From a virus, in the IMG/VR virus record IMGVR_UViG_3300042273_000209: DNA of 36,310 nt. One strand, 5' to 3'. Each line of letters starts with the position of its first letter. Positions within the stretch are counted from its first letter, which is position 1. The notes beneath the pieces were generated by a model. That model did not search any database. It was given only the letters and a program-made list of their open reading frames with translations, and was not told where the DNA came from. Shown here one piece after another: positions 2,558 to 34,410 of this stretch. The position numbers and the translations under genes were made by a program.

Positions 2558-2642
2558 GGGGGGGAGTTAGAGTCTACAGCCCTACTTTATTTTTTACGCC
2601 GGGGAGTCGCACGCGAGATTTCGCAAGTTAGGACATGGGGGG

Positions 2643-3865: not shown

Positions 3866-3877
3866 TCAGGAGGGTTT

Positions 3878-4486
3878 ATGGAAAAAAACAATAGAAACCT
3901 AATCACGATCAATGCTGTTTTTGTAGTCAGTCTTATCATGGCTAATGTCGTGGCGTCGAAAATCGTTGACGTTTTTGGATTTGTAGTTCCCGCTGCCGTT
4001 GTTGCTTACGGGATCACCTTCCTTTGCACGGATGTTATTGGTGAGATTTGGGGGAAGGAAGAAGCAAACAAGACCGTCAAATTGGGGTTTGTTATGCAAA
4101 TCCTATCTCTATGCCTTATCATTTTGGCGATAATGCTTCCGCCGGCGGTTTTTGCTGTTGAAGAGGGAAAGTCTTTTAATTCAATACTGGGGCAATCTGG
4201 AAGGGTGGTAGTTGCTAGTCTTATCGCCTACTTGGTAGCTCAATTCAATGATGTTTATGTTTTCCACAAACTGAAAGGCGCTTGCAACGGAAGAGCAAAG
4301 TGGATTCGGAACAATGGAAGCACTATTTTAAGCCAGTTTTTCGACACTGCAATTTTCATTACTGTGGCGTTTTACGGAGTAGTCCCTGACCTTGGATGGA
4401 TGGTTATCAGTCAGTATGTTGTAAAGGTCGTGATAGCGCTCTGTGATACACCTTTATTCTACTTCTTTACACGTAAAAGTGTATGA
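3878..4486 (+). CDS. yhhQ: Queuosine precursor transporter, YhhQ/DUF165 family
   Basis: Multi-TM protein; VVASLIAYLVAQFNDVYVFHKLK and CTDVIGEIWG resemble E. coli YhhQ; AT-rich. Confidence 0.7.
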   Translation: MEKNNRNLITINAVFVVSLIMANVVASKIVDVFGFVVPAAVVAYGITFLCTDVIGEIWGKEEANKTVKLGFVMQILSLCLIILAIMLPPAVFAVEEGKSFNSILGQSGRVVVASLIAYLVAQFNDVYVFHKLKGACNGRAKWIRNNGSTILSQFFDTAIFITVAFYGVVPDLGWMVISQYVVKVVIALCDTPLFYFFTRKSV

Positions 4487-4522
4487 AAAAATACTGGCGC
4501 AATGGGGTAGGAGGCGATTTTT

Positions 4523-5008
4523 GTGGCAGGGCCGCCAAGAAAACCAACGAAGCTAAGGATCCTGGAAGGGAACCCATCAAAGCGTCCCCTTCCAAAAAAT
4601 GAACCGGAGCCAGACCCTACAATGCCACAGTGTCCTGATTGGCTCATGGACGACGCTAAAGATGAGTGGAAGCGCGTTGCTCCGGAGTTGAACCGCATTG
4701 GATTACTGACAATAATTGACCAGACCGCGTTAGCAGGATACTGCCAGTCTTATGCAAGGTGGAAAAAGGCCGAGGAAGAAATCAAACTGCTCAAAAATAC
4801 AATATACCCATTAAAAGACGAAGCGGGAAACATTAAGGGCTTCCAGCAGTATCCACAGTACGGGATAGCAAATCAATGTCTAAAACAAATACGGGCGTTT
4901 TGCTCTGAGTTTGGGTTGACCCCGGCAGCGCGTGCGAAGATGGAATTGCCAACTGAGAGGAACCGTGACGACGACTTCGCCTCCAAACTTCGCTCGAAGA
5001 TAGGCTGA
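4523..5008 (+). CDS. Terminase small subunit, P27 family
   Basis: GTG start after AGGAGG; N-terminal GPPRKPTKLRILEGNPSKRP typical of P27-family small terminase. Confidence 0.8.
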   Translation: MAGPPRKPTKLRILEGNPSKRPLPKNEPEPDPTMPQCPDWLMDDAKDEWKRVAPELNRIGLLTIIDQTALAGYCQSYARWKKAEEEIKLLKNTIYPLKDEAGNIKGFQQYPQYGIANQCLKQIRAFCSEFGLTPAARAKMELPTERNRDDDFASKLRSKIG

Positions 5009-5012
5009 TCCC

Positions 5013-6557
5013 ATGTTTTCACGCAAAAAAGCAGACTGGGCGATTGAATTTATTGCCAGGCTAAAACACACAAAAGGCGAATGGGCCGGCAAGCCCTTCC
5101 TGCTTCAAAAATGGCAGAAGATGTTTTTGAAGGAACTCTTCGGGCGCGTCAAAGATGACGGACTCCGGCAATATCAGACCGCATATCTGGAGATCCCGCG
5201 CAAAAACGGGAAGTCTGAACTTGCCGCCGCCATCGCTCTTTTTCTCCTCTTCGGAGACGGGGAGCCGGGAGCGGAAATATACAGCGCCGCGTCGGACAGG
5301 GAGCAGGCATCCCTCGTATTCAACGCGGCTGCGTATATGGTCCGCAATGACCCGGTGCTCTCCGGCATGTGCAAAATCATCGACTCTCAGAAGCGGATCG
5401 TGTTCTACGAGACGGCGAGTTTTTACCGGGCCATCAGCGCGGAGGCATACTCGAAGCACGGATTCAACGCGCACGCCGTCATTTACGACGAAATTCACAG
5501 CGCACCGAACCGTGACCTCTGGGACGTGCTTTCCACGTCCATGGGAGCGAGGACACAACCGCTCATGCTCGGGATTACGACGGCAGGCTACGACCGGAAC
5601 TCCATCTGCTGGGAACTTCACGACTACGGGCAAAAAATCATTGACGGCGTGGTTGAAGATCCAACATTTTTCCCGCTCATATTCGCCGCCGACGAGGGAG
5701 ACGAATGGACGGACGAAAAAACGTGGAGGAAGGCGAACCCGAACCTAGGGGTATCAATCAAGCTCGACTTCCTGCGTCGGGAGTGCAAACGCGCCCAGGA
5801 GATCCCCGCCTACCAGAACACGTTCCGGCGGCTGTACCTCAACCAGTGGACGACTCAGGAAACGCGTTGGCTCGATATGTCGAAATGGCGCGAGTGCGGA
5901 GAGGACTTCGACCTCTCGAAGCTCGCAGACCTCCAATGCTGGGCTGGCGTGGACTTGAGCACCACGACCGACATATCCTCTTGCGCCTTGGTATTCGAGC
6001 CGGACGAGGAAGACAGGGTCCACGTCCTCTCGTTTAATTGGGTACCCGGCGACAACATCGCGGCAAGGGTTCGCCGTGACCGCGTGCCATACGACGCATG
6101 GGCGCGAGACGGGCATATCGTGGCGACGGACGGCAACGTCATAGACCATGACTACATCAGAAATTCTATCGCCATCGACCTTAAAGCTATGTTCCCGCGC
6201 TTGGAGGTCGTTGGATACGACCCATGGAACGCCACAAAATGGGCCATCGACCTCGAAGGCGACGGCGTGCCGGTGGTGCAGATCCGGCAGGGGTACAAGA
6301 CCATGAGCCCCGCATGCAAGGAATTAGAACGGCTTGTGCTCGGGGGTTATTTGCGCCACAACAATAACCCTGTTTTGACCTGGGCAATGGACAACGTTAT
6401 GGTCACGCAAGACCCGGCGGGGAATATTAAACCCGCAAAGGACAAGGCGACTGAGAGGATAGACCCGGCAGTTGCTCTAATAACCGCCATCGCCACCATG
6501 CTGGAGTTCCGCGACGAGCCGTCAATCTATGAATCGAGGGGAATACTAACTCTCTGA
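5013..6557 (+). CDS. Terminase large subunit
   Basis: 514 aa; conserved terminase_1 blocks (EIPRKNGKSELAAA, VIYDEIH, nuclease C-terminus). Confidence 0.9.
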   Translation: MFSRKKADWAIEFIARLKHTKGEWAGKPFLLQKWQKMFLKELFGRVKDDGLRQYQTAYLEIPRKNGKSELAAAIALFLLFGDGEPGAEIYSAASDREQASLVFNAAAYMVRNDPVLSGMCKIIDSQKRIVFYETASFYRAISAEAYSKHGFNAHAVIYDEIHSAPNRDLWDVLSTSMGARTQPLMLGITTAGYDRNSICWELHDYGQKIIDGVVEDPTFFPLIFAADEGDEWTDEKTWRKANPNLGVSIKLDFLRRECKRAQEIPAYQNTFRRLYLNQWTTQETRWLDMSKWRECGEDFDLSKLADLQCWAGVDLSTTTDISSCALVFEPDEEDRVHVLSFNWVPGDNIAARVRRDRVPYDAWARDGHIVATDGNVIDHDYIRNSIAIDLKAMFPRLEVVGYDPWNATKWAIDLEGDGVPVVQIRQGYKTMSPACKELERLVLGGYLRHNNNPVLTWAMDNVMVTQDPAGNIKPAKDKATERIDPAVALITAIATMLEFRDEPSIYESRGILTL

Positions 6558-13294: not shown

Positions 13295-13620
13295 CCGCAG
13301 GGGACTGGGAGCAAGCCGCTGCTGATCTGTTGCTGACGGCTCTTGGTCCCCTGCGTCTCTCCTATGATGACGTGTGGACCCTCACGTGGGGTGAAGTGGA
13401 AGACCTTGTCTATGCCTGGCGGTACTCGGAATTTTTGGAGACGCAAAAACGAGCGCAGCACGCCGCATGGCTCATGAACGCCACCGGGAATCTGAAAAGG
13501 CCCGTGAGGGTTGAGGACCTGTCCGGGTTCTGGGTAGATGGCGAAGTGCTGAGCAAAAACGAATACCACGAATTCCAGAAGCGGCGAATCCAGGCCAGGA
13601 AGGAGCGCAGGAATGGCTAA
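13285..13620 (+). CDS. -1 frame extension of tail assembly chaperone (GT-like frameshift product)
   Basis: Slippery heptamer A_AAA_AAC at 13285-13291; -1 frame open to TAA at 13618-13620, overlapping tape-measure start. Confidence 0.5.
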   Translation, partial: KKLTAGDWEQAAADLLLTALGPLRLSYDDVWTLTWGEVEDLVYAWRYSEFLETQKRAQHAAWLMNATGNLKRPVRVEDLSGFWVDGEVLSKNEYHEFQKRRIQARKERRNG

Positions 13621-15973
13621 AAAGAAAATCACATATGCGTTCGGCGCGGACCTCTCCGGCCTTGAGCGTGGATGGAAGCGCATCGATAGACAGATGCGCA
13701 CAATGTCCGCAAAAATGGAGCGCACCGGGCGAGCCATGACCACGGCGTTCACCGTTCCCTTGGCTGCCATCGGGACCATGGCGACGAAAGCCGCCCTTGA
13801 CGTGGACAAGGCGCTCCAGAACATCGCCCGGGGAACCGGTGCCACCGGGAAGGCCCTTGGGGATCTCCAGAAAGAATGGCGGTCTCTCGCGGGGACCGTG
13901 ACCCAGAACTTTGAGACCTCCGCCCAGGTGCTGGCCGATTACAACACCCGGCTTGGATTGACAGGGAAAGCACTTTCGGGGCTTTCGAAACAGGCCCTCG
14001 ATGCGGGGCGAATGATGGGAGAGGACGTCACCCAGGTGGTGGCGGAATCCTCCAAGGCTATGCAGGACTGGGGCGTGAAGGCTGGCGAAATGGCCGCCTT
14101 CATGGACAAGATTTTTATCGCCTCTCAAAGTACCGGAATCGGCATGGCGAAACTCTCCTCCCAGATGTACAAATACGGTTCAGCATTAAGGCAGATGGGC
14201 TTTGATGCTAATGACACTGTGGCGATGCTGGCACAGTTCGAAAAACAGGGCGTCAACACCGAGCTTGTGCTTGGGTCTCTGCGGATTGCCCTGGGACAGC
14301 TCGCAAAGGCTGGGATTACCGACGCAGGGGAAGCCTTCCGGCAACTTGCGGAGGACATAAAGAGAACAGAGTCTCCGGCCGAGGCCGTGGGGAAAGCGAT
14401 AAAACTCTTCGGTGCTCGTGCCGGGGCTGACATGGCCGCCGCCATACGGGAAGGCCGCTTTGAGGTTGGAGAATTGGCGGCTGCCCTTGAAACGGCCCAG
14501 GGAGCCATAGAGCGTAACAGTGACGCTACAAAAACCTTCGGGGATCAATGGGCGGAGACGAAAAATCAAGTGTCCCTCTCCATAGAGCCTATCGGTCGGG
14601 AAATACTGAAGCTCGCAAACAGCGTTTTGCCCTCCCTCCAAGCGAAAGCCGAAAGCCTCGGAGTGGCAATCGGGAACATGAGCGACGAGAGCAAAAAGAA
14701 AATGATTGCTCTCGCCGGCGTCCTTGCTGCTGGGGGGCCGCTGGCGATGGCCATGTCCGCCACCCTTACCGCTGTGCGCACGCTCGGAACAGCCATGCTA
14801 GCGTTTGCCACCGGCCCGGCGGCCCCCCTCGTAGCGACAGCCGCCGCAGTCTGGGCAATCGTTGAAGCCTTCAAAGCACTCAACGACATGATGAGCAAAA
14901 CATCGGAGATACAAAAAAGAGCAACAGGCATGACTCCCGAACAGGTGATGAACCGGCAGAGATACCGTGAAATGGCCGGGGAAATATACCGGGAGCGGCA
15001 CGGAAAGTACCCGGTCACCGCTCCTGATTTTAAAGAGCTGGATTCCATCGTTGACGAACTGCTTGCGGAAGCCCGCAAGCGGATGCAGCAGCAGATCGAC
15101 ATGAAGGGATATGCCCAACGCACGGAAGTGTTGCCCTCTCCCGGGGTTCCCGGTGGAACCATAGACACCGCGACACCGGCGACACCGGCGCCGTTCCAAG
15201 GGCTTCCGGAGGCTGAGGCGGCGATCCAGAAGCTCACCGCCGCCGGGCGCGAATCGGTGACGGTGTATTCCCAACTTGCGCAGAAGCTTGCATCTGCTCT
15301 GAACATCTCGGAGGCGGAGGCCGAGAAGCGCCTTGAATCGGCGCGAGAGATCGGTGTTCTGACATCCGCCGAGATAACGCGCATGGAAAAGCGGAATGAG
15401 TTGCTCGAAGAGGCGCGGATGATCGCGGAGCAGGTGAACGCGACAAAAGAAAAAATAAAGGACACAACTTCCGACCTTGCGGACATGACGAAGCTCTGGG
15501 TAAACGACCTTGCCCGGGGACTGGCGGACGCAATCGTGAACGCCAAAGACCTGGGCGACGTGCTCCAAAGCATTGCGAAACAGATCGCCTCTTCAGCCCT
15601 TCAAAAGCTCATCGGTGGATGGATCGGCGGTTTATTCGCAGACGGGGCGGCCTTCCAAGACGGGCGCGTCATTCCGTTTGCCAAGGGCGGAATCGTTACC
15701 AAACCGACGATCTTTCCCATGGCTCGCGGCATGGGCTTGATGGGCGAAGCGGGGCCGGAGGCGGTCATGCCGCTTAAGCGAGGCGCTGACGGATCCCTTG
15801 GCGTGCAGTCCGAAGGCGGCGGAGGTACGCACATCACCATGAACATCAACGCCGTCGACAGCCGTTCCTTCGTGGAGATGATGCGGTCTAACCGGGCATC
15901 GGTTGAAAGTATCGTCGTTGAAAACATCATGAAAAACGGTGCGCTTCGCTCCGCGATAAGGGGGCTGGCGTAA
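13613..15973 (+). CDS. Tail tape measure protein
   Basis: 786 aa, Ala-rich helical, TM-like central segment, position. Confidence 0.85.
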   Translation: MAKKKITYAFGADLSGLERGWKRIDRQMRTMSAKMERTGRAMTTAFTVPLAAIGTMATKAALDVDKALQNIARGTGATGKALGDLQKEWRSLAGTVTQNFETSAQVLADYNTRLGLTGKALSGLSKQALDAGRMMGEDVTQVVAESSKAMQDWGVKAGEMAAFMDKIFIASQSTGIGMAKLSSQMYKYGSALRQMGFDANDTVAMLAQFEKQGVNTELVLGSLRIALGQLAKAGITDAGEAFRQLAEDIKRTESPAEAVGKAIKLFGARAGADMAAAIREGRFEVGELAAALETAQGAIERNSDATKTFGDQWAETKNQVSLSIEPIGREILKLANSVLPSLQAKAESLGVAIGNMSDESKKKMIALAGVLAAGGPLAMAMSATLTAVRTLGTAMLAFATGPAAPLVATAAAVWAIVEAFKALNDMMSKTSEIQKRATGMTPEQVMNRQRYREMAGEIYRERHGKYPVTAPDFKELDSIVDELLAEARKRMQQQIDMKGYAQRTEVLPSPGVPGGTIDTATPATPAPFQGLPEAEAAIQKLTAAGRESVTVYSQLAQKLASALNISEAEAEKRLESAREIGVLTSAEITRMEKRNELLEEARMIAEQVNATKEKIKDTTSDLADMTKLWVNDLARGLADAIVNAKDLGDVLQSIAKQIASSALQKLIGGWIGGLFADGAAFQDGRVIPFAKGGIVTKPTIFPMARGMGLMGEAGPEAVMPLKRGADGSLGVQSEGGGGTHITMNINAVDSRSFVEMMRSNRASVESIVVENIMKNGALRSAIRGLA

Positions 15974-16841: not shown

Positions 16842-17215
16842 TCGGGATACCGTGGAAGGCAAAAGGGCGGGACCGAAGCGGCATCGACTGCGTAGGCCTC
16901 GCCCTTCTCGCGCAAAAGGAGCTGTACGGGCGGGAGTATGAATTCCCGTTCGACTACGACCCGGAGACGGGCGACGAGCGCGTTTTGCTCGACTGGCTGG
17001 ATGGCATCGCCGATGAAGCGGCCGTACCGCAGAATGGAGACCTCGTGATTTATCGCCTTGCCGGGACAGAGAAGCACCACATCGGCACGGTCGTTGACGA
17101 GGCGCTGCTCCACATCTATCCGGGCAAAAGTTCAAGAAAGGTTCGATTGCCGATGAAACGCATTTGCAAAATCTACCGGGCGAGGGAGGTGGGATCATGC
17201 CGGGAGCCGCGATAG
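16838..17215 (+). CDS. NlpC/P60 (C40 peptidase)-like tail protein (lambda K-like)
   Basis: GIDCVGL Cys motif and HHIGTVV His motif. Confidence 0.6.
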   Translation: MIGIPWKAKGRDRSGIDCVGLALLAQKELYGREYEFPFDYDPETGDERVLLDWLDGIADEAAVPQNGDLVIYRLAGTEKHHIGTVVDEALLHIYPGKSSRKVRLPMKRICKIYRAREVGSCREPR

Positions 17216-20200
17216 GGGCACTGCTTGGAGCGGCTTTTTCGTCAACGATAATCGGGTGGGGGCTGGCGGCAACATGGCTCGGAGCGATGATGATAGGAGC
17301 TTCCATCGGGAGTCTGTTTGACGCACAGGAAATTGACCTCGGAAATTCCACACCGAACTACGCCTTCGGACAGCTTTCCAATACGAAGAGTCAGCTTCTC
17401 CCGGTCCCGATCGTGTACGGGCGTTGTCGCATGGGCGGGAACGTGTTCATGCAAACGTTTTATGACGACTCCATGCAGAAGATGGACATGTTTGTCGGCG
17501 TCTCGGAGGGTCCGATTCAGTCGATAAAATCCGTGTACGCGAATGATGTTGTGCTCATTGATGAGAACGGCGACGAGGTTCACGAGCTTGTCGAAAGCTC
17601 GCTTAATCTCCATCTTGGAGCGCCGGACCAGGTAGCCGACAGCCGCGACCCCGGCGGGAACGCCTATCCGAACACGGCATATGTCGCCCTTACCCTCAAG
17701 GCGCAAGACAGACTAACGGGCAACCCGGTCATATCCTCCATCGTGGAGGGACGAAAAGTTTGGACGCCTGCGGGGACAGTATTTTCTCGTAATCCTGCGT
17801 GGATCGTGTACGACTTCCTGACGAATACCCGCTACGGCGTTGGCATTCCAACAGACCTGATAGACCTCGACAGCTTCACGGCGGCGGCTACGTATTGCGA
17901 CGCGCCGATTGACGGTGGGCCGCGATTCACGCTGGACTACATCATCGACACTCAGCGCCCTGCCGTGGACCATTTGCAGGCTATGTTGGGCTGCTTCCGA
18001 GGGTACTTTCTCGCCCGTGACAAGATCGAATTGCACGTCGAGCAGGCCGGGAGTGTGTACAAGGCCCTGACTCCGGACAACTTTGTCAAGAACTCTTTCA
18101 TGTGGTGGCAGAAGAGCGGTGACGACAGCCCGAACAGGATCGTCATCGAGTGGGTCGACCCGAACAACCACTACGAGCAGAGTTCCGCGCCGTTCGAGAT
18201 CCAAGAGGACATTGCCGCTCGCGGGGTGTACGAGAAATCCATCTCCCTGCTCGGAGTCACGCGCCCGGAGCAGGTGGGGCGGCTTGGAAATTACCTGCTT
18301 GAAACGGCGAAGCGGGTACAGAACTTCTGCGCGTTCCAAGTTTCGCTGAAGGATGCGGATATCGAGGCCGGGGAGATCGTCAGCATCACCTACCCCGACT
18401 TCACCGGGTGGAGCGCAAAGCCCTTTAGAGTGCTGGCCGTGCAGGACGAAGGACAGACTGGGAACGTCACCATCACCTGCGCGGAATACGATGCGGCGGT
18501 GTACTCCGACGATGGGCTGAACGTCGATAGCCCGATCCAGGACAGTCCGCCGGTCACGTATGACGACGTGTACGCGCTGGTGTTGGAGGACGTAGGGCAT
18601 CAAGAGGGCGATGGTACATGGGTTCCGATCATCAGAGCGACATGGCAAAATCCATCCGACTACACGCCGACGGCGATTAATGTACGGTGGCGATATGTTG
18701 CGGACGAAGGAGAGCCGGAAGAGGAATGGACGCTTCACGTCAACAGTACGCGCCTGATAACGCAGACCAACATTCCAAGCCTTAAAACCGGGCGCGAAGT
18801 CGAAGTCTGGGTGAATTGCGTTCGACCGGACACCGGGACGGAAACGACCGGAAAAACGGCGTCGATCATCGTAGGGAAAGACGTGGAAGCCCCCGACGCA
18901 CCGACTGGACTAACGGCTACGGGATGGTTCGGTTCGATCATCCTTGAATGGATAAATCCGACCGCGCCCGACTTGTCTCATATCGAAATCTGGGAAAACG
19001 CGGTCGACGACCGGGACACCGCAGTAAAAATTGCCGAGACAAAAGGGACGTCATACCAGCGGTATGTGGGTTCGTTCATCACCCGCTACTATTGGGTGAG
19101 GGCGGTGGATTTATCAGGCAATATCGGGCCATGGAACGCCCTGGCGGGCACGGCGGGCAACTCCGACCAGGAGAACCATCAGGTTTTCGTGGATCTGTTG
19201 CTTGAGGAAAACCCGTATCTGAACAAGGCCATCGACGATCTGAACACGCGGATCGATCCGATAGAAGTAGATATCGGAGATATTACCGGCAGGCTGGAGA
19301 CCGTCGAAGTTGATCTTCCCGGAGCGGTACAGCGGCTCGCGGAGAGAATGAAGGAAATCGACGCGGACGTTATGGATCAACTTCGCTCCGTCTCCGCGTC
19401 TGCGGTCGATGCGTTGCTGAACATCGCTGAGATCGGGCAGCGAATCACGGACGCCGGGATTGTGGTGGACCCGGACAGCGGCGAGGTCAGAATCTGGGCC
19501 GTCGATCAGCTACGAACGGAGCACGGAGTTAGGCTGTCGAATGCGGAACAGCTTATCAGCGCCCAAGCCGGCATAATCTCGCAAAAGGTCGGGATTGCGG
19601 ACGTAGACGCAAGGATTGCCGAAGCGGTATTCGGAGACGTCGGCGAGTTGTTGGTATCAGGGCTTGAGGCACACATCACGAGCGTCGAGCAGGAGCTTAA
19701 CGCCGCGAAAGCGGAATTGACGCAGAAGGCTAACAGCATAGAAGTAGATGAGATAGGCGGACGTGTAGGTACTGCGGAAACGGAAATCTCAGGGCTTAAG
19801 GCGTCCGTTGCGTTGAAGGCGAATCAGGAAGAGGTGGACGAACTCACTTCCAGAGTGACAACCGCTGAATCTACGGTTGACGCCCTAAACGGAACCATCG
19901 GCTCGGAAATAGTCGCCATCGGTCAGGAAGGGCGTGACCTGGCGAATCTCACCGCCGAGGGTTTGGTAGAAGCCATCCTCAACGATGCGGACAACCACGA
20001 TAGGTCCAAGGTAAGCCTCGCTATGGCAAAAGAGGAGTTGTACGCCAATATAGAGGATGGGCTAGAAGCCGAGGCAGGCCAGAGGGCGGAACTTGCCGCT
20101 GTGGTTGACGACAACAAGGCACTGATACTCGAAGAGAAGGCGGTTAGAGCCACGCAGGACGAAGCAATAGCGTCCTCTGTGGAGTTATTGACCGCCAGGG

Positions 20201-21360
20201 TAGGAGATGCAGAAACATCCGTCCAGACCGAAGCCGAAGCGAGGTCTACGGAAACAGCGTCCCAGGGTGCTTATACCTTTAACATGATCTCCAAGCTTAC
20301 GGGGGAAACAGCGGAGGCCGTCGTCGAGGACATTCTGAATCAAGCTGAGGGTAGAGACGTCGCCAAGGAACAATATGCCATTATCCGTGAAGAGTACGAT
20401 ACTAAGATAGAAGAAGGCATATCGTCCGAGGCTAGCAAACGAGAGCTGTTGGCCGTGAAGTTAGATGAAACAGAAGCCGCTATACAGGAAGAGGCATATA
20501 CCCGCGCCACGCAGTACGAAGCAACTTCCGCCCGGATTGCGACCGTGACGGCAACGGTCGAGAATAATCTGGCCGCGATCCAAAACGAGGTTACGGCACG
20601 GGCGGATGCAGACTCAGCTCTAGCCTCTAATGTATCAACATTGTCAACCACGGTCGGAAGTAATACCTCTGCAATACAGACAATTGACAGTTCAGTTGAC
20701 GGAATTAAATCAAAACACGCCGTAAAGATAGACACAAACGGGTACGTTACAGGCTATGAACTTATTGGCACTGGCGCATCAAGCTCCATGGTATTCCATG
20801 TTGATAATTTTCTAGTCGGCAAGCCAGGGACAACAAACAAGTATCCATTTGTCATTGGTACGGTTGACGGTGTATCACGGGTTTCCATGAACAATGCATT
20901 CATCCAAGATGCGGCGATCAGCTCAGCGAAGATTAAGGACGCCAACGTTGGGACGTTAAAAATCGAGGGGAACGCTGTTTCTGTCCTGGCGGTGGCATCT
21001 GGAGACTCAAAGATAGACCTAGGGGTCATGGGTAGTGATACGTATCACCAGGTGCTCTCTCTCACTGTATCAACCCTGGCGGGCTATCCAATGATGATTA
21101 ACTTTACAGCTTCTACCGAGGTAGTCGAGTCTACAATGGCTCTCCGTCTGACACGTAACGGATCTGTTTTATCTGGGCAGGATGAGATTTGGATCACCCA
21201 ATTTGGATACTCTGGGGCGAGGTTTGCGACTGCCTACACGTTCGTAGACAAATATCCCCCCGGAGGGAACAATACCTATGCTATCTACCTCAAAAAGGTT
21301 GGAGGATTGGCGGTTAGAGTCTTTAATCGAGCACTTACAGCATTGCACGTCAAGAGGTGA
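17197..21360 (+). CDS. Host specificity / central tail fibre protein (lambda J-like)
   Basis: About 1387 aa; NPAWIVYDFLTNTRYGVGI motif; GAGGGAGG RBS before ATG 17197. Confidence 0.8.
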   Translation: MPGAAIGALLGAAFSSTIIGWGLAATWLGAMMIGASIGSLFDAQEIDLGNSTPNYAFGQLSNTKSQLLPVPIVYGRCRMGGNVFMQTFYDDSMQKMDMFVGVSEGPIQSIKSVYANDVVLIDENGDEVHELVESSLNLHLGAPDQVADSRDPGGNAYPNTAYVALTLKAQDRLTGNPVISSIVEGRKVWTPAGTVFSRNPAWIVYDFLTNTRYGVGIPTDLIDLDSFTAAATYCDAPIDGGPRFTLDYIIDTQRPAVDHLQAMLGCFRGYFLARDKIELHVEQAGSVYKALTPDNFVKNSFMWWQKSGDDSPNRIVIEWVDPNNHYEQSSAPFEIQEDIAARGVYEKSISLLGVTRPEQVGRLGNYLLETAKRVQNFCAFQVSLKDADIEAGEIVSITYPDFTGWSAKPFRVLAVQDEGQTGNVTITCAEYDAAVYSDDGLNVDSPIQDSPPVTYDDVYALVLEDVGHQEGDGTWVPIIRATWQNPSDYTPTAINVRWRYVADEGEPEEEWTLHVNSTRLITQTNIPSLKTGREVEVWVNCVRPDTGTETTGKTASIIVGKDVEAPDAPTGLTATGWFGSIILEWINPTAPDLSHIEIWENAVDDRDTAVKIAETKGTSYQRYVGSFITRYYWVRAVDLSGNIGPWNALAGTAGNSDQENHQVFVDLLLEENPYLNKAIDDLNTRIDPIEVDIGDITGRLETVEVDLPGAVQRLAERMKEIDADVMDQLRSVSASAVDALLNIAEIGQRITDAGIVVDPDSGEVRIWAVDQLRTEHGVRLSNAEQLISAQAGIISQKVGIADVDARIAEAVFGDVGELLVSGLEAHITSVEQELNAAKAELTQKANSIEVDEIGGRVGTAETEISGLKASVALKANQEEVDELTSRVTTAESTVDALNGTIGSEIVAIGQEGRDLANLTAEGLVEAILNDADNHDRSKVSLAMAKEELYANIEDGLEAEAGQRAELAAVVDDNKALILEEKAVRATQDEAIASSVELLTARVGDAETSVQTEAEARSTETASQGAYTFNMISKLTGETAEAVVEDILNQAEGRDVAKEQYAIIREEYDTKIEEGISSEASKRELLAVKLDETEAAIQEEAYTRATQYEATSARIATVTATVENNLAAIQNEVTARADADSALASNVSTLSTTVGSNTSAIQTIDSSVDGIKSKHAVKIDTNGYVTGYELIGTGASSSMVFHVDNFLVGKPGTTNKYPFVIGTVDGVSRVSMNNAFIQDAAISSAKIKDANVGTLKIEGNAVSVLAVASGDSKIDLGVMGSDTYHQVLSLTVSTLAGYPMMINFTASTEVVESTMALRLTRNGSVLSGQDEIWITQFGYSGARFATAYTFVDKYPPGGNNTYAIYLKKVGGLAVRVFNRALTALHVKR

Positions 21361-21364
21361 TGAA

Positions 21365-21688
21365 ATGAAAGAATGGACAGAGTTTGATCCGGACGGGCGA
21401 TACTTTCAAAACTGTAGCTCGACCGATAAGGTTAACCCCTCGACGCAATATTACGTCTTAGGGGAGTACGACGACACCTATTATTATGCTGACGGCAAAG
21501 CCATATCTAGGCCGCAGCTCCCTATAACCGTCGCAGGCTCAGTTATTTCAGGCATACCGCAAGGCGCAACGGTCACACTCGGTGAGCAGTCTTTCATTAT
21601 TGATGATGGTGAAGCTGACATCGAGGGATACACAGGGGTAGTTAAAATCACATGCTGGCCCTACCGCGATGCAGAGGTGGAGATATGA
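21365..21688 (+). CDS. Hypothetical tail-associated protein
   Basis: GAGGTG RBS; follows J-like gene. Confidence 0.5.
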   Translation: MKEWTEFDPDGRYFQNCSSTDKVNPSTQYYVLGEYDDTYYYADGKAISRPQLPITVAGSVISGIPQGATVTLGEQSFIIDDGEADIEGYTGVVKITCWPYRDAEVEI

Positions 21689-21882
21689 AAATAAAATACA
21701 AGCCAACCTCTGCGGAGGTGCGGAAAAAGCGGAAAGCGGAATATTTATCAAAGTATCCGATTGAGATCCAACTTGAGGCAATTACGGAAGCGGCGATGGG
21801 GCGCACGACAAAATTAGATGAATTGGTCAAGGGGCTCTCTGACATCAGGGAGTCCCTGCCATTCTCAGAGGAGGTTGAATAA
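21685..21882 (+). CDS. Hypothetical small protein
   Basis: ATGA coupling; GAGGTGGAG RBS. Confidence 0.45.
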   Translation: MKIKYKPTSAEVRKKRKAEYLSKYPIEIQLEAITEAAMGRTTKLDELVKGLSDIRESLPFSEEVE

Positions 21883-23195
21883 TGAGCTGGTATAGAACAG
21901 GAACCGTAGCCGTAACGAACGGTTCCAAGACCGTCACTGGGGTCGGAACGCTCTGGACAACCGCTGTCAATGCGGGGGATGCATTCGCCCTTGTGGACGC
22001 AAATCTGAACCCTACGGGCGCATGGTACGAGGTGGAGTCCGTCACGAACAATACGACTCTGGTGCTGAAACAGTCCTATACGGGGAGCACCGGGAGTAAT
22101 AAGCAATACTGCGTGTTCAATCTTGTGGGCAACATGACCACACCGAGCTTCGCCCAGCGGTTGGCGCAGTTTTTCGACAGTTTCCAAGGGTTGCTCGACC
22201 AGCCGACCACCACGCCCACGGCATCCAGCATCCCGATCGCCGACGGCAGCGGCAAATTGGCCGCTGGATGGCTCCCGGCAGCCACGACATCGGCCTCCGG
22301 CGTGGTCGAGCTGGCGACCGCAGCCGAGGCGCAGGCTGGGACCGACTCCGTGCGGGCGGTGACTTCTTCGGGGCTGCGTGCGGCGCTGCTGGCAGCCGCC
22401 CTTAACTATGGGTTTCACCCATCGCTAACTAATGCAGCACCGGCTGATCTCAATACGTTGCTGACCCCTGGTATATATACCGGGCCTGGCGTATCAGGCA
22501 CATCCAGCTGGCCGGGCGTCAACACCAAGTATGGCTACGTAATCGTGCTTCAGCGGTCGAGCATGCAAGTAATGCAGATGGTGCTGTACCCGTCGTCGAC
22601 GGGGGTAGAATTTTACATCCGTGCATACACTGACGGCACCTGGACAGCATGGAATGTCTTTGCGCCACCGACTCTCGCCGCCACCTCCACCGACGATGCC
22701 ACATCGGCAACTGCGGCTCCGCTGAAGAGTGCGGGGGGGCTGGCGGTGGCTAAGGATGCTTGGGTGGGGGGCGATACCCGACTTACTGCGGGAGGAATCC
22801 ATGGTGGAGGTGTCCTTAATAAGACATTTTGGCATGACTTGCCAGATGCGGGGACGTACAAAATAAAAATTGCCTCTCAAGCGTATATAATTGGGGCATT
22901 GGATATCTCTGTATTTGGAACATACGGAACAACTAACAGAGAAGGGTATGCCAGCTACAAGGTCCTATTTAATAGGACTGTTGACTCCATAACTATAATC
23001 CCCGTGCAGGCACCAAAGGATACTGGGGGATCTTTTACAACAGGATATTCTTTTAATGTAGCTAAACCAGATACCGACACATTAGAAATAGCAATTACAA
23101 AAGGATCTGGTGCCATTTATTACGTGGGTATTCAGGGAGTTTTTACACACCCCCACTTCGCAAAAACTGTAACAACCGAGTTTATCCCAGCATAA
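21882..23195 (+). CDS. Tail fibre protein with low-GC C-terminal domain
   Basis: ATTSASGVVELATAAEAQAGTDSVRAVTSSGLRAAL fibre motif; composition shift near 22800. Confidence 0.7.
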   Translation: MSWYRTGTVAVTNGSKTVTGVGTLWTTAVNAGDAFALVDANLNPTGAWYEVESVTNNTTLVLKQSYTGSTGSNKQYCVFNLVGNMTTPSFAQRLAQFFDSFQGLLDQPTTTPTASSIPIADGSGKLAAGWLPAATTSASGVVELATAAEAQAGTDSVRAVTSSGLRAALLAAALNYGFHPSLTNAAPADLNTLLTPGIYTGPGVSGTSSWPGVNTKYGYVIVLQRSSMQVMQMVLYPSSTGVEFYIRAYTDGTWTAWNVFAPPTLAATSTDDATSATAAPLKSAGGLAVAKDAWVGGDTRLTAGGIHGGGVLNKTFWHDLPDAGTYKIKIASQAYIIGALDISVFGTYGTTNREGYASYKVLFNRTVDSITIIPVQAPKDTGGSFTTGYSFNVAKPDTDTLEIAITKGSGAIYYVGIQGVFTHPHFAKTVTTEFIPA

Positions 23196-23210
23196 AAGGA
23201 GAATGCATAC

Positions 23211-23420
23211 ATGTTAAATAAACTTGACTCGCTCCACCAGGACGTATCCCAGGCAATCATCCAGCTCCGAGAGTTGGAGCGGTACAAGGATGACTTTACA
23301 GTCGCTAAAAAGGCCGAACTACAGGCCACGATCAACCGCCTCCTCGGCGACGCACAGCGGAAGATGGACACCGTAGAGGACCACAGGGCAGATGGTACAT
23401 GGGAATCCTCTGGGGAATAG
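23211..23420 (+). CDS. Hypothetical protein (coiled-coil-like)
   Basis: AAGGAGA RBS. Confidence 0.4.
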   Translation: MLNKLDSLHQDVSQAIIQLRELERYKDDFTVAKKAELQATINRLLGDAQRKMDTVEDHRADGTWESSGE

Positions 23421-23713
23421 TCCCTCTCCTCGTCCATGAAGGCGCCCATTACCTGGCGGCCTTCCTGGTGGGGAGCCGCCTTCGTTTTCGCTTTTCGTGG
23501 GGGCGGTTGGGACCGGTCAAGGTACCCAGGTGGACATGGACGTGGCCGGACACGACGCCCCAAAAAATACGTTTCATCTGTCAGGCCGGGTTCCTTCTGG
23601 AGCTCGGCCTGATCCCGTTTGCTCCCTGGCAGTATCAGGCGGTGGCCATTATCCATTTTGCCGCTTATCCCTGGTATGCCGGGGATCACAGCGATTTCAG
23701 GGGGATGATCTGA
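23399..23713 (+). CDS. Small membrane protein with HExxH motif (HEGAH) in first hydrophobic helix
   Basis: ILWGIVPLLVHEGAHYLAAFLVG; immediately upstream of endolysin. Confidence 0.4.
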   Translation: MGILWGIVPLLVHEGAHYLAAFLVGSRLRFRFSWGRLGPVKVPRWTWTWPDTTPQKIRFICQAGFLLELGLIPFAPWQYQAVAIIHFAAYPWYAGDHSDFRGMI

Positions 23714-24261
23714 TGGCGCGATTTGACGATTGTCTACAGGTGGTGCTGGGCTTCGAGGGCGGGTACAGCCACCACGAGGCCGACCGGGGAGGCCGCACGA
23801 ACTGGGGCATCACGGAGGCGACGCTAAAAGAGGCCCGCAAGCGCGGCATCGTGGGTCACTCCGACATTGCGCGACTCAAAACCCACGAGGCCGCAGCCAT
23901 CTATGAGGCGCTCTACTGGGTGCCGTCTCGGGCCGACGACATGCCGCAGCCGCTCGACCTCGTCGTCTTCGACTGCGCCGTTAACCACGGCGTCGGGGGG
24001 GCCGGTCGCCTCCTGCAGGAGGCGGTCAACGCCGTGATGGACGCCGATCTTGTGGTGGATGGAATCGTCGGACCGGCGACACAGCGAGAGTTAATGAAAG
24101 CCCTGGCTGCCAATCGCCCCGAGGCGCTGGCCCTGGCTATGCTGGCCATGAGGGCCCGCTATTTCGTCCGTATCGTCGAGGGCAACCCCAGTCAGCGGGC
24201 GTTTTTCTGGGGCTGGGTGCGTCAGAGAGTGGCCAACCTTATCGACAAGCTCAGGAGGTGA
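23713..24261 (+). CDS. Endolysin, glycoside hydrolase family 108-like with peptidoglycan-binding C-terminus
   Basis: VLGFEGGYSHHEADRGGRTNWGIT motif. Confidence 0.8.
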   Translation: MARFDDCLQVVLGFEGGYSHHEADRGGRTNWGITEATLKEARKRGIVGHSDIARLKTHEAAAIYEALYWVPSRADDMPQPLDLVVFDCAVNHGVGGAGRLLQEAVNAVMDADLVVDGIVGPATQRELMKALAANRPEALALAMLAMRARYFVRIVEGNPSQRAFFWGWVRQRVANLIDKLRR

Positions 24262-24267
24262 GGCCCT

Positions 24268-24585
24268 GTGAGCGAGGATAGAGTGTATGGACTCCAGCAG
24301 GACATTGAGGAGATAAAGGACAGTTTAAAGGAACTGGCCAAGGCATACACGGAACTGGCCCTCCACAACCAGCGTCTCGTGACGTTGGAACAAGGGCTCC
24401 AGGGTATCACCAAGGACGTCCGGCGCATACAGGAGACATGCCTCGTGCGGGGCGCAAAGTTAGACCGACTGGGCGAGGCCCCCCAGGACTGGTGGGAGCG
24501 GAACTTCTCGTCCGCCGGGGTTAAATTACTCTGGCTCGTCGTCGGCGGCATCGTGGGGACGATCATCGCGAGGTATGCGAGATGA
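24268..24585 (+). CDS. Lysis-cassette protein, coiled coil plus C-terminal TM helix
   Basis: GTG start after GGAGGTGAGG; C-terminal VKLLWLVVGGIVGTIIA. Confidence 0.45.
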   Translation: MSEDRVYGLQQDIEEIKDSLKELAKAYTELALHNQRLVTLEQGLQGITKDVRRIQETCLVRGAKLDRLGEAPQDWWERNFSSAGVKLLWLVVGGIVGTIIARYAR

Positions 24586-24809
24586 AGAATATCGCACAAT
24601 GGCCGTTGCGAAAACCGTTAGCGCTGTTCGCCGCCGCACTCGTGGGCGGCGTCGTCGTCTGGAGCCTGGTCTGTCAACGCGATATCCCGCCCAACGTCAA
24701 GGATCTGACTCAGTGGTTCGCGGGTATCGTCCTGGCGGCCTATTTCGCGTCGAGCACGACGGAGGCGGTGAAGGGGGTCGAGAAGCGATGTCCGAGCGAC
24801 GGTGGCTAG
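24582..24809 (+). CDS. Holin-like protein (two TM segments)
   Basis: ATGA coupling; two hydrophobic helices in 75 aa. Confidence 0.5.
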   Translation: MKNIAQWPLRKPLALFAAALVGGVVVWSLVCQRDIPPNVKDLTQWFAGIVLAAYFASSTTEAVKGVEKRCPSDGG

Positions 24810-25060
24810 GCTGGCTGGCGGCTCTGGCGACAGCTCTGGCCTGGCTCGCTCGGGAGCTGCTTGTGGGCAAGACGCAGGAGCCCAAGCCCGTCGAGAGGAC
24901 AAAGGAGAAGGAGCGAGAGATTGTGGACGAAAGGGGGCGACACGATGAGGAGATCAGGAACGCAGAGGACGAGGCTCGTCGCCTGGTCGATGCTGCTGGC
25001 CTCGACGATCTTGTGGCTCGTGCCAATGAGCGTCTGCGCCGAAGTGAGGGTGACAGCTGA
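24788..25060 (+). CDS. i-spanin-like protein (N-terminal TM, charged coiled coil)
   Basis: MSERRWLGWLAALATALAWLA then KE/R-rich helix. Confidence 0.4.
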   Translation: MSERRWLGWLAALATALAWLARELLVGKTQEPKPVERTKEKEREIVDERGRHDEEIRNAEDEARRLVDAAGLDDLVARANERLRRSEGDS

Positions 25061-25322
25061 CGGCGAGGTCGTGATGACGGCTGAGGATTTCCGGGCGATC
25101 ATGGCTGACCTGGAGGCAGCAGAGGCGACGCGAGACGCCCTTGATGCCGCTCTCGCCACGGAGAGGGCGCGGGTGGACGACTACATGCTGGAGGTAGAGT
25201 CGCTGAGGTCCATCCTTGAGATCGAGAGGGACTCGTTCCGATCGGCGAGGCTTTCGGCAACAAAAGACAAATTCATCTGGGGATTCGTGGGGGCCCTCCT
25301 CGGGGCCGCCGCGAATAACTAG
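24945..25322 (+). CDS. o-spanin or u-spanin-like protein overlapping previous gene in another frame
   Basis: N-terminal signal-like segment ending LVPMSVC, coiled coil, C-terminal hydrophobic tail. Confidence 0.35.
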   Translation: MRRSGTQRTRLVAWSMLLASTILWLVPMSVCAEVRVTADGEVVMTAEDFRAIMADLEAAEATRDALDAALATERARVDDYMLEVESLRSILEIERDSFRSARLSATKDKFIWGFVGALLGAAANN

Positions 25323-25339
25323 GGAGAGGAGGTGGAGCA

Positions 25340-25459
25340 ATGAATAGTTTCGTAGCGCTGATTCTGGCCATGGCCTGTTTTGCCGGATTCATCCTGGCGC
25401 TTGACGCGCGCAAACGGAAGGCCCTCCAGAAGCAGATTGATGAGCTAAAGAAAAGATGA
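25340..25459 (+). CDS. Small TM peptide (39 aa)
   Basis: Strong GGAGAGGAGGTGGAG RBS; one TM helix; followed by terminator. Confidence 0.3.
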   Translation: MNSFVALILAMACFAGFILALDARKRKALQKQIDELKKR

Positions 25460-30751: not shown

Positions 30752-31042
30752 GTGATTCGATGCAAGCTGAAAATCCCTGACGGGATTCTGGAGTCACGGC
30801 GACAGGCAGCGGAAGAGGTGAGCGAGTTCTTGCGCACCGCGCAGGCCGGGGCCCGCGCGTTCATCGAGCACGAGGACTTTCAGGCCCGCTTCTGCGCATA
30901 CTGCGCGGCCCAGGGCGACGAGGACGAGTGTCCCACGGGGCTGACGATCGGCCACGCGGAGTGTTGGCGGGTCACGGAGTTCCGCGACCTCTGCCGGGAG
31001 CTGGCCGATCTTGAGCGGGAATACACGGGGAGGCGAGCGTAG
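30752..31042 (+). CDS. Hypothetical Cys-containing protein
   Basis: GTG start 11 nt after AGGAGG. Confidence 0.45.
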   Translation: MIRCKLKIPDGILESRRQAAEEVSEFLRTAQAGARAFIEHEDFQARFCAYCAAQGDEDECPTGLTIGHAECWRVTEFRDLCRELADLEREYTGRRA

Positions 31043-31056
31043 TGGAGGCCAGGGAG

Positions 31057-31869
31057 ATGGCCGCGGATGCGAAATTGTCCTGCCTTATTTCGGGACTTGA
31101 AAACGAGGTTTATCACGCCTCTCCCGGCCTTTCAAAATCTGACCTAGACAGGATCGCCAAGAGCCCTGCGCACTATGTGGCCGCAAAAAAAGAGGCCGTC
31201 TCCCCCACGCCGGCCATGAGGTTCGGCACGGCGGTTCACGCGGCCGTCCTGGAGCCGGAGCTGTTCAGGGAAACCTACGCGATGGCTCCAGGGGTAGATC
31301 GCAGAACCAAAGCCGGCAAGGAGGCCTGGGAGGAGTTCCAGGCCTCCGGCAGGCAGCCTCTTACCTCCGACGAGTGGGCGGCCATCGCGGGCATGAGGGA
31401 TTCCGTCATGGCCCTCCCGGCGGTCAAGCGGATCCTCGCCGGCGGCGAGGCTGAAATGAGTCTCTTCCACTACCTGGACGAACTGGGGGTCAGGGCAAAA
31501 ATCCGGCCTGACTGGGCAAACTCCGATATCGCCACGCTCTTCGACCTAAAGACCACTAGGGACGCTTCTCCTGACCAGTTCGCGAAATCCTGTGCAACCT
31601 TCCGGTATCACGTCCAGGCGGCATTCTATTCGGACGTGTGGAGGATGCGTACCGGCCAGCCAGTCAGGGCCTTCGTGTTCTGCGCGGTGGAGAAAGAGCC
31701 ACCCTACGCGGCGGCTCTCTACGTCCTGGACGACGAGGCCATTCAGGCAGGGAGGGCGCTCTACCGCTACGATCTCGAAACCTATGCTACCTGTCGGGAA
31801 GCCGACGAATGGCCTGCCTATTCGACCGACGTTGAGACCCTGAGCCTTCCGGCCTGGGCGCTGAGATAA
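31057..31869 (+). CDS. PD-(D/E)XK-family exonuclease (recombination module)
   Basis: Synteny with RecT; FDLKTT and QAAFYSDV motifs; GGAGG RBS before ATG 31057. Confidence 0.55.
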   Translation: MAADAKLSCLISGLENEVYHASPGLSKSDLDRIAKSPAHYVAAKKEAVSPTPAMRFGTAVHAAVLEPELFRETYAMAPGVDRRTKAGKEAWEEFQASGRQPLTSDEWAAIAGMRDSVMALPAVKRILAGGEAEMSLFHYLDELGVRAKIRPDWANSDIATLFDLKTTRDASPDQFAKSCATFRYHVQAAFYSDVWRMRTGQPVRAFVFCAVEKEPPYAAALYVLDDEAIQAGRALYRYDLETYATCREADEWPAYSTDVETLSLPAWALR

Positions 31870-31881
31870 GGAGGATTCGAC

Positions 31882-32796
31882 ATGGCACAGGACAGAGCAA
31901 TCGCGCTCAAGAAGAACATGGAAAATCTCAAGGGGATGCTCCAGAAGGCCCTGCCAAGGCTCCAGGAAGTGGCGGCCTCAAGCATCGACCCTAAGCGCAT
32001 GATCCGATTGGTCGCTGCGGCGGCAAACCGAAATCCGAAGCTCCTGGAATGCACGCCACTTTCGGTGGTGTCGAGCCTGATGACCTCGGCTCAACTGGGG
32101 CTTGAGCCGGTCGGGCCTTTGGGGCAGGCCTACCTGGTCCCCTACTGGAACTCGCAAGCGAGGGTCAATGAGGCTCAGCTCCAGATCGGGTATCGGGGAC
32201 TGATCGAGCTGGCCCGCCGGTCAGGGGCTATTTCCTCTCTGGAGGCTCATGTTGTCTATGAGAGGGATGCCTTCGAGCTTGTCTATGGCTTGGCATCGGA
32301 CATCGTGCACAAGCCCTGTTTGGACGGAGATCCCGGCCAGCTGCGGGCTGTTTACGCTGTGGCTCGCTTCAAGGACGGTTCGGTGCAGTTCGAGGTCATG
32401 ACGCGGGCTCAGGTGGAAACGATCAAGGCCCGTTCTCAGAACGGGAAAAACAGCAAGGGCCCCTGGGCAACTGATTATGACGAGATGGCCAGGAAGACCG
32501 TGGTGAAACGGCTCTGCAAGTATCTCCCGCTGTCCGTGGAGATGGCCGATGCCATTCAGATAGACAATGCAACCGAGGAGGGGCGGATCCCGGATAGCTT
32601 CCTCGAGGCCGAGATCTCGGAGATTGGCGAAACGCCCCCTAACGACGCCTCGTTCCTGAACGAGCCGGAGGGCTCGAAGGAACGGTGGGGGAAAGACGAG
32701 ACGGCAAGGCCTGCGGGGGAGGAACAGGAGCAGCTTTCCGACTTCGCCTTCCTGCCCGAGGCCGAGGCCGAGCGCGAGCCCGGCGAAGAAGGCTAG
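31882..32796 (+). CDS. recT: RecT-family single-strand annealing recombinase
   Basis: GLEPVGPLGQAYLVPY and PWATDYDEMARKTVVKRLCKYLPLS motifs. Confidence 0.85.
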   Translation: MAQDRAIALKKNMENLKGMLQKALPRLQEVAASSIDPKRMIRLVAAAANRNPKLLECTPLSVVSSLMTSAQLGLEPVGPLGQAYLVPYWNSQARVNEAQLQIGYRGLIELARRSGAISSLEAHVVYERDAFELVYGLASDIVHKPCLDGDPGQLRAVYAVARFKDGSVQFEVMTRAQVETIKARSQNGKNSKGPWATDYDEMARKTVVKRLCKYLPLSVEMADAIQIDNATEEGRIPDSFLEAEISEIGETPPNDASFLNEPEGSKERWGKDETARPAGEEQEQLSDFAFLPEAEAEREPGEEG

Positions 32797-33360: not shown

Positions 33361-34410
33361 ATGACCGGTGACTATCGCATTAAAATAGGCTTCTTCCGGC
33401 ATCACAAGACCAAGCGCCTCAAAAAGAAAGGCGGAGCTGATGCCGTCGTTGCCCTGCTTCAGCTTTGGGAATGGGCAGCGGAGCAAAGGCCCGACGGAGA
33501 CCTGCGCGGCCTGTCCGCTGAGGACATCGACATCGTCGTCGATTGGGACTCAAACATGCCGTTGGCCACACTCCTCTCCGAGGCGGGATTCCTGGATGGT
33601 GACGAGGGAGAGTATCGGTTGCACGACTGGGCCGACCACAATCCCTGGGTAGCCGAATCGGCGCGGAGGAGCGACGCCGCCAGGCTGTCGCGGCTGGCCC
33701 GCGAGAACCCCGAGGCGGCCTCGGCCCTGCGAGACGAGGGGCGTATTGGCATCACCGAAGAAGAGTATCGCGCGCTAAAGCTCGGCACGAATAACGAGCG
33801 TGACACAAACATGAAACAACCGAACAACGACCGTAGTACGACCGTAGTACGACCGTCAACGCTTCGTTCTACTCCTGCTCCTGCTCCTGCTCCTGCTCTT
33901 GATCCTGCTCTTGATCCTGCTCTTGATCCTGAACCAAAAGACAAGGGTCAAAAGCAAAAGACGTCGCCTGGGCTATCGCCGGCGACCCCTTCGGCGGCCC
34001 CACCACCCCTGATCCAGCCGGAGGATATCCCCTACCAGGCCATCGTGGATGTCTATCACGAGGTGCTGCCGGAGCTCCCCAGGGTCCGCATACTAACCGA
34101 TGCACGCCGAAAGGCGATTCGCAGCCGGCTGAGATCAGATGCCGACCGGCGCGATCTGGAGTGGTGGAGGCGCTATTTCCTGGCAGTTCGACCGTGCCGC
34201 TTTCTCTTCGGCGCGAATAACCGCAACTGGACGGCCTCGTTCGATTTCCTGCTAAGCCAGAAGGGCATGGCCGGAGTCCTCGAAGGCAAGTACGCGGACA
34301 GAAAAGGCGCGACCGCGACGCCGTCCGGTTCCATCGCTGCCTACGTTGACGCGATGTTCCCGGACGAACCGGATGTGCTCGATGCGGAGGTGATTGGCGG
34401 TGACGGATAG
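33361..34410 (+). CDS. Putative replication initiation / organizer protein with internal tandem-repeat linker
   Basis: Position in replication module; conserved C-terminal segment WTASFDFLLSQKGMAGVLEGKY. Confidence 0.45.
   Translation: MTGDYRIKIGFFRHHKTKRLKKKGGADAVVALLQLWEWAAEQRPDGDLRGLSAEDIDIVVDWDSNMPLATLLSEAGFLDGDEGEYRLHDWADHNPWVAESARRSDAARLSRLARENPEAASALRDEGRIGITEEEYRALKLGTNNERDTNMKQPNNDRSTTVVRPSTLRSTPAPAPAPALDPALDPALDPEPKDKGQKQKTSPGLSPATPSAAPPPLIQPEDIPYQAIVDVYHEVLPELPRVRILTDARRKAIRSRLRSDADRRDLEWWRRYFLAVRPCRFLFGANNRNWTASFDFLLSQKGMAGVLEGKYADRKGATATPSGSIAAYVDAMFPDEPDVLDAEVIGGDG
33830..33930 (+). repeat. Cluster of short tandem repeats (candidate origin iterons)
   Basis: ccgtagtacga x2.5, cctgct x4, cttgatcctgct x3 in direct succession. 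Confidence 0.6.

Follow-up and report, generated by a model that had tools for sequence, protein, structure and literature searches.

The AT-rich 3′ end of a side tail fibre gene (approximately nt 22776–23195) in the window, i.e. the whole 36,310-nt stretch of viral DNA that was analysed, is probably an exchangeable cassette for the distal tip of a side fibre of the PyoF13 type, swapped in by homologous recombination from a gene pool of lower GC3; the probability of this reading is put at about 75%. Cassette exchange is seen in a compositional break within the gene, in junctions that are shared among relatives, in the multiple tip types found behind them and in the occurrence of the tip family on unrelated shafts. 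These observations are the basis on which we infer recombination as the mechanism, and when, in which direction and from what kind of donor the tip moved. Horizontal exchange of the distal domain had been proposed in an original prediction made from the sequence, and it is largely supported by nine tips behind one linker, by discordant relatives and by the foreign GC3 of the tip.

The side fibre gene and its genomic setting

The window is a segment of a tailed-phage genome. Its left part carries the genes for the terminase (small and large), the portal and the major head protein, the tail module upstream of the side fibre comprises a tape measure gene (nt 13613–15973), minor tail proteins and a J-like protein (nt 17164–21360), and the right part carries RecE-like, RecT-like and replication genes, with a replication initiation gene (nt 33361–34410) after the side-by-side RecE-like and RecT-like genes. 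The ORF referred to in the original prediction encodes 437 aa, and its identification there as a tail fibre gene is confirmed by matches to PHROG tail-fibre families over aa 1–270 and by the similarity of aa 1–83 to an F2-pyocin side fibre. It is preceded by the J-like central fibre gene and then two small ORFs, and is followed by a 69-aa ORF, a 104-aa ORF and lysis genes, including a GH108 endolysin (nt 23497–24261). The same order of central and side fibre genes is found in the related loci L004, L009, L030, L031 and L032. The features discussed below are as follows.

17164..21360, + strand: J-like central tail fibre, 1398 aa (Pfam Phage-tail_3, Phage_Tail_Tip)
21882..23195, + strand: side tail fibre gene, 437 aa (ORF; PHROG tail-fibre families on aa 1–270)
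21882..22130, + strand: N-terminal anchor, OB-like beta domain, aa 1–83 (phmmer against PDB 25ve; pLDDT 85–92)
22419..22661, + strand: middle knob-like domain, aa 180–260 (folded beta domain, pLDDT 74–89)
22671..22775, + strand: conserved GC-rich linker, aa 264–298, TLAATSTDDATSATAAPLKSAGGLAVAKDAWVGGD, the 5′ junction of the proposed tip cassette
22776..23195, + strand: low-GC tip cassette, aa 299–437 plus stop (folded beta-sandwich aa ~317–437, nt 22830–23192)
23211..23420, + strand: conserved 69-aa ORF, the 3′ flank of the cassette (kept in relatives)
31042..32796, + strand: RecE-like exonuclease and RecT annealing protein (PHROG 412, PHROG 148)

The N-terminal domain is homologous to that of PyoF13, the side fibre of an F2 pyocin (PDB 25ve/25vj; PMC13455828). 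In phmmer searches of the PDB, aa 1–83 matched residues 1–77 of chain 25ve_A (E = 3.3e-9), and a second, weak stretch aligned query residues 166–287, which include the knob, with 25ve_A 127–252 (domain i-Evalue 1.4); the knob domain itself falls, weakly, against PyoF13 residues 127–225. The two systems are further alike in having the side fibre gene downstream of a J-like central fibre gene within a lambda-like tail module, and in small genes that accompany the fibre gene on its downstream side; the middle domain is a putative counterpart of the pyocin knob. They differ at the distal end, as PyoF13 (363 aa) terminates in a knob-type receptor-binding domain that resembles R-pyocin fibres (PMC13455828), whereas the fibre in the window adds a linker and a beta-sandwich tip after the knob. 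The phage is lambda-like, with a siphovirus-type tail module and a non-contractile tail, and the fibre is a PyoF13-type side tail fibre. Pyocin side fibres form trimers, three of which are attached to the helical shaft of the J-like central fibre through the N-terminal OB domain and a stem helix (PMC13455828). By analogy, the side fibre of the window would be expected to form trimers too and probably attaches to the J-like protein.

A full-length monomer model of the fibre was poor overall (pLDDT 62.8) and serves for domain boundaries only: a beta domain at aa 1–80, a helix at aa 87–105, an extended region, the knob at aa 180–260, an unmodelled stretch at aa 262–315 and a beta domain at aa 317–437. 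The linker was of low confidence when modelled as a monomer. Taken with the comparison to relatives, the fibre consists of four pieces: a conserved anchor (aa 1 to ~130), a variable shaft/knob (aa ~130–263), a conserved linker (aa 264–298) and a variable tip (aa 299–437). Many relatives are 78–93% identical over the anchor; the knob is found in only some of them, and the parts that precede the linker are 169, 195, 216 or 260 aa long.

The two small ORFs that follow the fibre gene have a putative role that is either fibre-associated or lysis-associated. The 69-aa product has no family match and no transmembrane segment recognisable by eye. The 104-aa product (nt 23399–23713) is hydrophobic, carries a HEGAH motif and also has no family match; its ORF overlaps that of the 69-aa protein. 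No hits came from Rfam and tRNA scans of the entire window, and a promoter/terminator scan around the fibre gene gave counts near the shuffle expectation.

Base composition along the fibre gene

In 300-nt sliding windows, GC falls from 0.58–0.66 at nt 22200–22800 to 0.41 at nt 22800–23250 and returns to 0.60 beyond. A maximum-likelihood two-segment split of the ORF placed the change-point at nt 22816 (codon 311), with GC 0.606 upstream and 0.403 downstream, and the log-likelihood gain of 21.7 was reached by none of 2000 codon shuffles of the ORF (mean 2.6, maximum 10.1). The gene is therefore not uniform in composition, and the AT-richness that the original prediction had ascribed to roughly the last 130 codons holds up quantitatively. 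The AT-rich domain was taken there to start at nt 22800, no more than about 25 nt from either the change-point or the end of homology to relatives at nt ~22776, which is itself 40 nt upstream of the change-point. The dip is rare within the 36-kb stretch (overall GC 0.586): only 1.8% of all 381-nt windows are equally AT-rich, and GC of 0.45 or less is confined to two regions, nt 2861–4632 and nt 22741–23352. The tip cassette has a GC of 0.40–0.43 and a GC3 of 0.34, while the next gene (nt 23211..23420) is back to a GC3 of 0.67.

The enrichment in Lys, Ile and Tyr that had been noted for the C-terminus is likewise present when aa 299–437 are compared with aa 1–298: Ile 10.1% against 1.7%, Lys 5.8% against 2.3% and Tyr 5.8% against 3.7%. 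A rival reading needs no exchange at all: the domain would have been inherited vertically, with its composition set by amino-acid constraint or by selected rare codons, which might, for instance, delay translation as the beta-sandwich folds. The encoded amino acids do reduce expected GC, to 0.53 in the tip compared with 0.60 in the N-terminus. To obtain these expectations, synonymous codons were redrawn from the codon table of the phage's own structural genes. With the amino acids fixed in this way, aa 311–437 still have an observed GC of 0.409 against 0.530 ± 0.014 expected (z = -8.6) and a GC3 of 0.346 against 0.679 ± 0.042 (z = -7.9); for the remaining three parts of the fibre gene the deviation is no more than about 2 sd. 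Since the redraw leaves so large a deviation, only part of the dip is due to amino acids; they account for roughly a third of it and synonymous codon choice for the rest. A GC3 that is 7.9 sd too low makes vertical inheritance under such constraints very improbable, and the relatives described below weigh against it as well.

A reduction in GC also precedes the fibre gene. From nt 20584 to 21880, GC is 0.45–0.49 and GC3 0.38–0.53, compared with a GC3 of 0.57–0.85 upstream; the region spans the last ~260 codons of the central fibre gene, with its Phage_Tail_Tip match, and the two small ORFs. The entire host-recognition region, and not the side-fibre tip alone, is therefore a patchwork.

The only other strongly AT-rich island of the window (nt 2861–4632, GC 0.39–0.44) includes a gene for a DpdA-like/queuine tRNA-ribosyltransferase-like protein (nt 3107–3865, PHROG 887) and one for a Vut_1 (YhhQ-type) transporter (nt 3878–4486). 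It is flanked by a ParB_N nuclease-like ORF (nt 2643–3134) upstream and the small terminase gene downstream, and looks like an imported 7-deazaguanine-related accessory module.

Cassette junctions and discordant relatives

Relatives with 57–93% identity in the N-terminal parts were found to have different C-termini. Among the 120 homologues listed, the shared part ends recurrently at a few positions, namely aa ~130 (85–91% identity), 165–187 (70–83%), 257 and 291–320 (49–63%), and a single protein, P0033, aligns from end to end (42% identity).

The linker motif, TSTDDATSATAAPLKSAGGLAVAK..VGG (aa 267–297), recurs in 24 fibres. When compared with seven loci, the linker shows 79–91% amino acid identity in six and 70% in the other (L004), and its core is 72–92% identical at the nucleotide level, with similarity collapsing right after VGG(D) at nt ~22776. 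Downstream, a 69–75-aa ORF trails the fibre gene by 0–16 nt in all seven relatives examined, whatever their tip type; homologues of 70–75 aa in L003, L004, L030, L031, L032 and L033 share 47–81% amino acid identity with that of the window, and DNA homology restarts at the ribosome-binding site and start codon of this small ORF. Because the linker and the downstream ORF are both conserved, the low-GC stretch is a cassette between two conserved flanks.

The 24 linker-bearing fibres fall into nine unrelated tip clusters (BLASTP). Every cluster with more than one member includes several pre-linker lengths, so shuffling has occurred on both sides of the linker. Anchors can be 78–93% identical where tips are only 15–21% identical. 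The closest anchor relative, L033, is 93% identical over aa 1–125, lacks the knob and carries a different tip (15% identity). In L032 the anchor (78%), linker (91%) and small ORF (77%) are all similar, yet the tip is different (18%). A domain boundary common to all relatives had been regarded in the original prediction as a sign against exchange; the boundary is indeed shared, yet the sequence past it differs, which supports exchange.

These relatives also bear on vertical inheritance. In its favour, P0033 (locus L002) shares the four-part architecture, the tip family and even the C-terminal TEFIPA of the fibre in the window, with identities of 45% in the anchor, 88% in the linker, 34% in the tip and 81% in the small ORF. 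Against it, the closest anchor relatives have eight other tip types behind the same linker, and the tip family is also found on unrelated shafts. A neighbour-joining tree of tip domains was poorly resolved and paired the tip of the window with that of P0033 on long branches, so the older history of this tip may include vertical descent inside the linker-bearing lineage. That it is nearer to tips on foreign shafts than to that of P0033, as percent identities might suggest, has no firm support from the tree.

As to how cassettes are exchanged, the most likely mechanism would be homologous recombination between co-infecting or resident phages, which would replace the tip by one crossover in the conserved linker of ~100 nt and another in the conserved small gene just downstream, leaving the rest of the fibre undisturbed. 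The tip now in the window would have come from a gene pool with much lower GC3, its codon usage not yet adjusted. Recombinases of the RecE/RecT kind tolerate short, diverged homology, and the phage encodes such a pair (PHROG 412 exonuclease VIII, E = 2e-98; PHROG 148 RecT-like, E = 8e-84), which may take part in tip exchange. Two other routes to fibre variation are unlikely here. For a diversity-generating retroelement target, a blastn-short search of nt 22701–23210 against the whole window gave only chance matches of 11–12 nt, and for an invertible or shufflon-type segment (as in Mu G or P1 C), the linker and tip were found to be single-copy on both strands of the window.

The linker has a GC of 0.55–0.69 in every locus, against 0.40–0.59 in the backbones around it and 0.43–0.52 in the tips. 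A tentative and rather doubtful extension of the cassette reading is that the GC-rich linker and the downstream gene form a dedicated 'socket', conserved in DNA across phages of 0.40–0.59 GC, in which selection or GC-biased gene conversion would maintain the junction and permit plug-and-play of at least nine tips, the tip of the window belonging to an undescribed receptor-binding family. The socket may cross virion types, given that the related 44.8-kb contig L030 carries SU10-type head genes. Because L030 also has the conserved fibre anchor, the fibre module accompanies another head type.

The L030 contig has two further features. A homologue of the 69-aa ORF is present in this locus as well, and its SU10-type major capsid gene (nt 1640–3396 of the contig) is called in two pieces, of 44 and 255 aa. 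Between them lies an ORF that faintly matches LAGLIDADG, pointing to an intron or the insertion of a homing endonuclease.

The phage itself was found again in the IMG/VR contig 3300042272_000129, in which the fibre is 100% identical, and the tip in a JGI contig of sample 3300042274 was 100% identical over the 138 aa compared. Scans of IMG/VR returned the same phage and two N-terminal relatives. A DNA search of nt 17000–25400 against 50,697 GenBank phage records gave no match, and tblastn of the fibre returned only distant N-terminal matches, mostly to Pseudomonas phages. Relatives of the fibre are present in a Synergistales MAG and in a Dethiosulfovibrio genome of 2.9 Mb, where a prophage shows an identical order of genes. 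Because of these, the phage probably infects a member of the Synergistota.

One further relative, L018 (SAAL01000173.1), is a 3.8-kb contig binned as a Bacteroidia MAG. Its locus has a GC of 0.44 and includes the fibre anchor at 88% identity, where GC is 0.63–0.66; either the contig is misbinned or this is another instance of the module moving between GC backgrounds.

The tip domain: origin, fold and function

Tip composition is decoupled from that of the backbone, and in both directions. The tip lies below backbone GC in the window, L033, L006 and L009, and above it in L008, which has a 40%-GC backbone. Four loci with this tip family on a different shaft likewise have a tip richer in AT than the remainder of the gene (GC3 is, for instance, 0.20 against 0.53 in L009, and 0.37 against 0.56 in L006), and one genome that carries the family, L011, has a GC of 34%. 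A low-GC tip is not universal, as L014 has a different C-terminal domain with a backbone-like GC3 of ~0.8. The decoupling is most simply explained by tips moving among phages of different GC.

The tip might be swappable and yet have become AT-rich locally, if fast-evolving tips that rarely recombine drift towards AT under a general AT-biased mutation pressure and the linker is kept GC-rich by frequent recombination, through GC-biased gene conversion, or by selection. Such drift fits the finding that, of 12 loci, 10 have a tip with a lower GC3 than the fibre sequence before it, one an equal and one a higher value, as well as the high GC of the linker even in a 0.40 backbone. It also fits the outcome of the donor searches: protein searches and IMG/VR and metagenome scans yielded no near-identical or DNA-level donor, the closest tip homologue being about 50% identical, and no locus could be confirmed from two metagenome scans run with tip patterns. 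However, the gap in the window (GC3 0.34 against 0.70) is the largest among the 12 loci, uniform drift does not accord with the GC-richer tip of L008 or the C-terminal GC3 of L014, and the second AT-rich island of the window holds accessory genes of a typical imported kind. Local drift is therefore an unlikely source for the whole of the dip, but because 10 of the 12 tips have lower GC3 than the parts upstream, a local process could add to the AT-richness of an imported tip.

The tip has no Pfam, PHROG or PDB sequence match, the Pfam searches covering the whole protein and its last 131 aa at E ≤ 0.1. The family is rare, with 21 matches at E ≤ 1e-3 among 1.84 billion cluster representatives, and was recovered only by an exhaustive phmmer scan; word-indexed protein searches, whether the query was the tip alone or a 16-sequence tip profile, yielded little else than a fragment of the same protein and three distant members. 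The best homologues are 40–52% identical. In family members, which are 152–686 aa long, the domain is C-terminal or nearly so, and many have shafts unrelated to this fibre, such as ERMRIDSSGN-type repeats or, in two, an Mtd_N domain. An alignment of 16 sequences shows a conserved core (AGT.TI, NREGYAAY, TVQ.P, F.F...KP and K.SGA.Y), and AlphaFold modelling from this alignment returned a 10-strand beta-sandwich of ~120 residues (pLDDT 88.4, pTM 0.83). The best matching solved folds were the C-terminal beta-sandwiches of phage tailspikes (6c72, 6e1r), followed by carbohydrate-binding modules and adhesins. The similarity to these Acinetobacter tailspike domains is structural (11–17% identity, TM-scores 0.4–0.44) and does not extend to a relationship at the sequence level, and the tailspikes are beta-helix depolymerases, which the fibre in the window is not.

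The tip is the outermost domain of the fibre and, to judge from this position and its predicted fold, is most likely the part in contact with the cell-surface receptor. Two other roles have to be weighed, in which the C-terminal domain is an assembly aid (a removed chaperone or cap) or a structural end-piece, and the knob at aa 180–260 binds the receptor as in pyocin fibres. The knob is the receptor-binding domain in PyoF13 (PMC13455828), with which the middle domain here aligns weakly, and C-terminal chaperone caps occur in other fibres (PMC10579305). On the other hand, no match to Peptidase_S74, the C-terminal intramolecular chaperone, or to any other Pfam family was found in the protein or its last 131 aa, the compact beta-sandwich resembles distal domains of tailspikes and carbohydrate-binding modules, and a high turnover of tip types is usual for parts that contact receptors. 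In addition, relatives with a 169-aa pre-linker part that lacks the knob still have a tip. An assembly or end-piece role is for these reasons improbable, and receptor contact by the tip remains the preferred reading. If the tip does bind the receptor, tip swaps would change host specificity.

Exchanged C-terminal receptor-binding parts are known from lambda Stf, P2 H, Mu S and T-even gp37/gp38, and the exchange of distal fibre domains is a textbook route of phage host change; the phenomenon itself is therefore not new, and the fibre in the window is a clear but ordinary case of shuffled host-recognition parts. Like the known mosaic fibres, it has a conserved particle-proximal part and a variable distal part, with breakpoints at short conserved sequences and an exchanged piece of atypical base composition. 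It differs from them in its linker motif, its nine tip types and its tip family, none of which are in Pfam or PHROGs, in hosts that are apparently Synergistota, and in having the same downstream gene for every tip rather than a tip-specific chaperone gene adjoining the tip. PMC10684548 deals with the shuffling of protein fragments and domains among phage proteins that interact with the host, and PMC10579305 describes fibre modules common to distant Alteromonas phages.

What is new here is the precise bounding of a cassette by linker, tip and downstream gene, with at least nine interchangeable tips behind one linker, and a rare tip domain family, present in no library, in phages linked to the Synergistota. 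The Synergistota are anaerobes, and to our knowledge almost none of their phages have been studied. The junctions could guide the design of chimeric fibres, and a catalogue of tips could help to link uncultured phages to their hosts.

In loci that combine the tip family with an unrelated shaft, a gene of ~100 aa for a DUF7936 (PF25590) protein comes after the fibre gene each time (L006 nt 2672–3001, L007 nt 1454–1783, L009 nt 5773–6084 and L010 nt 983–1282). This gene is absent from the window, and its product may be a partner or chaperone tied to those shafts and not to the tip.
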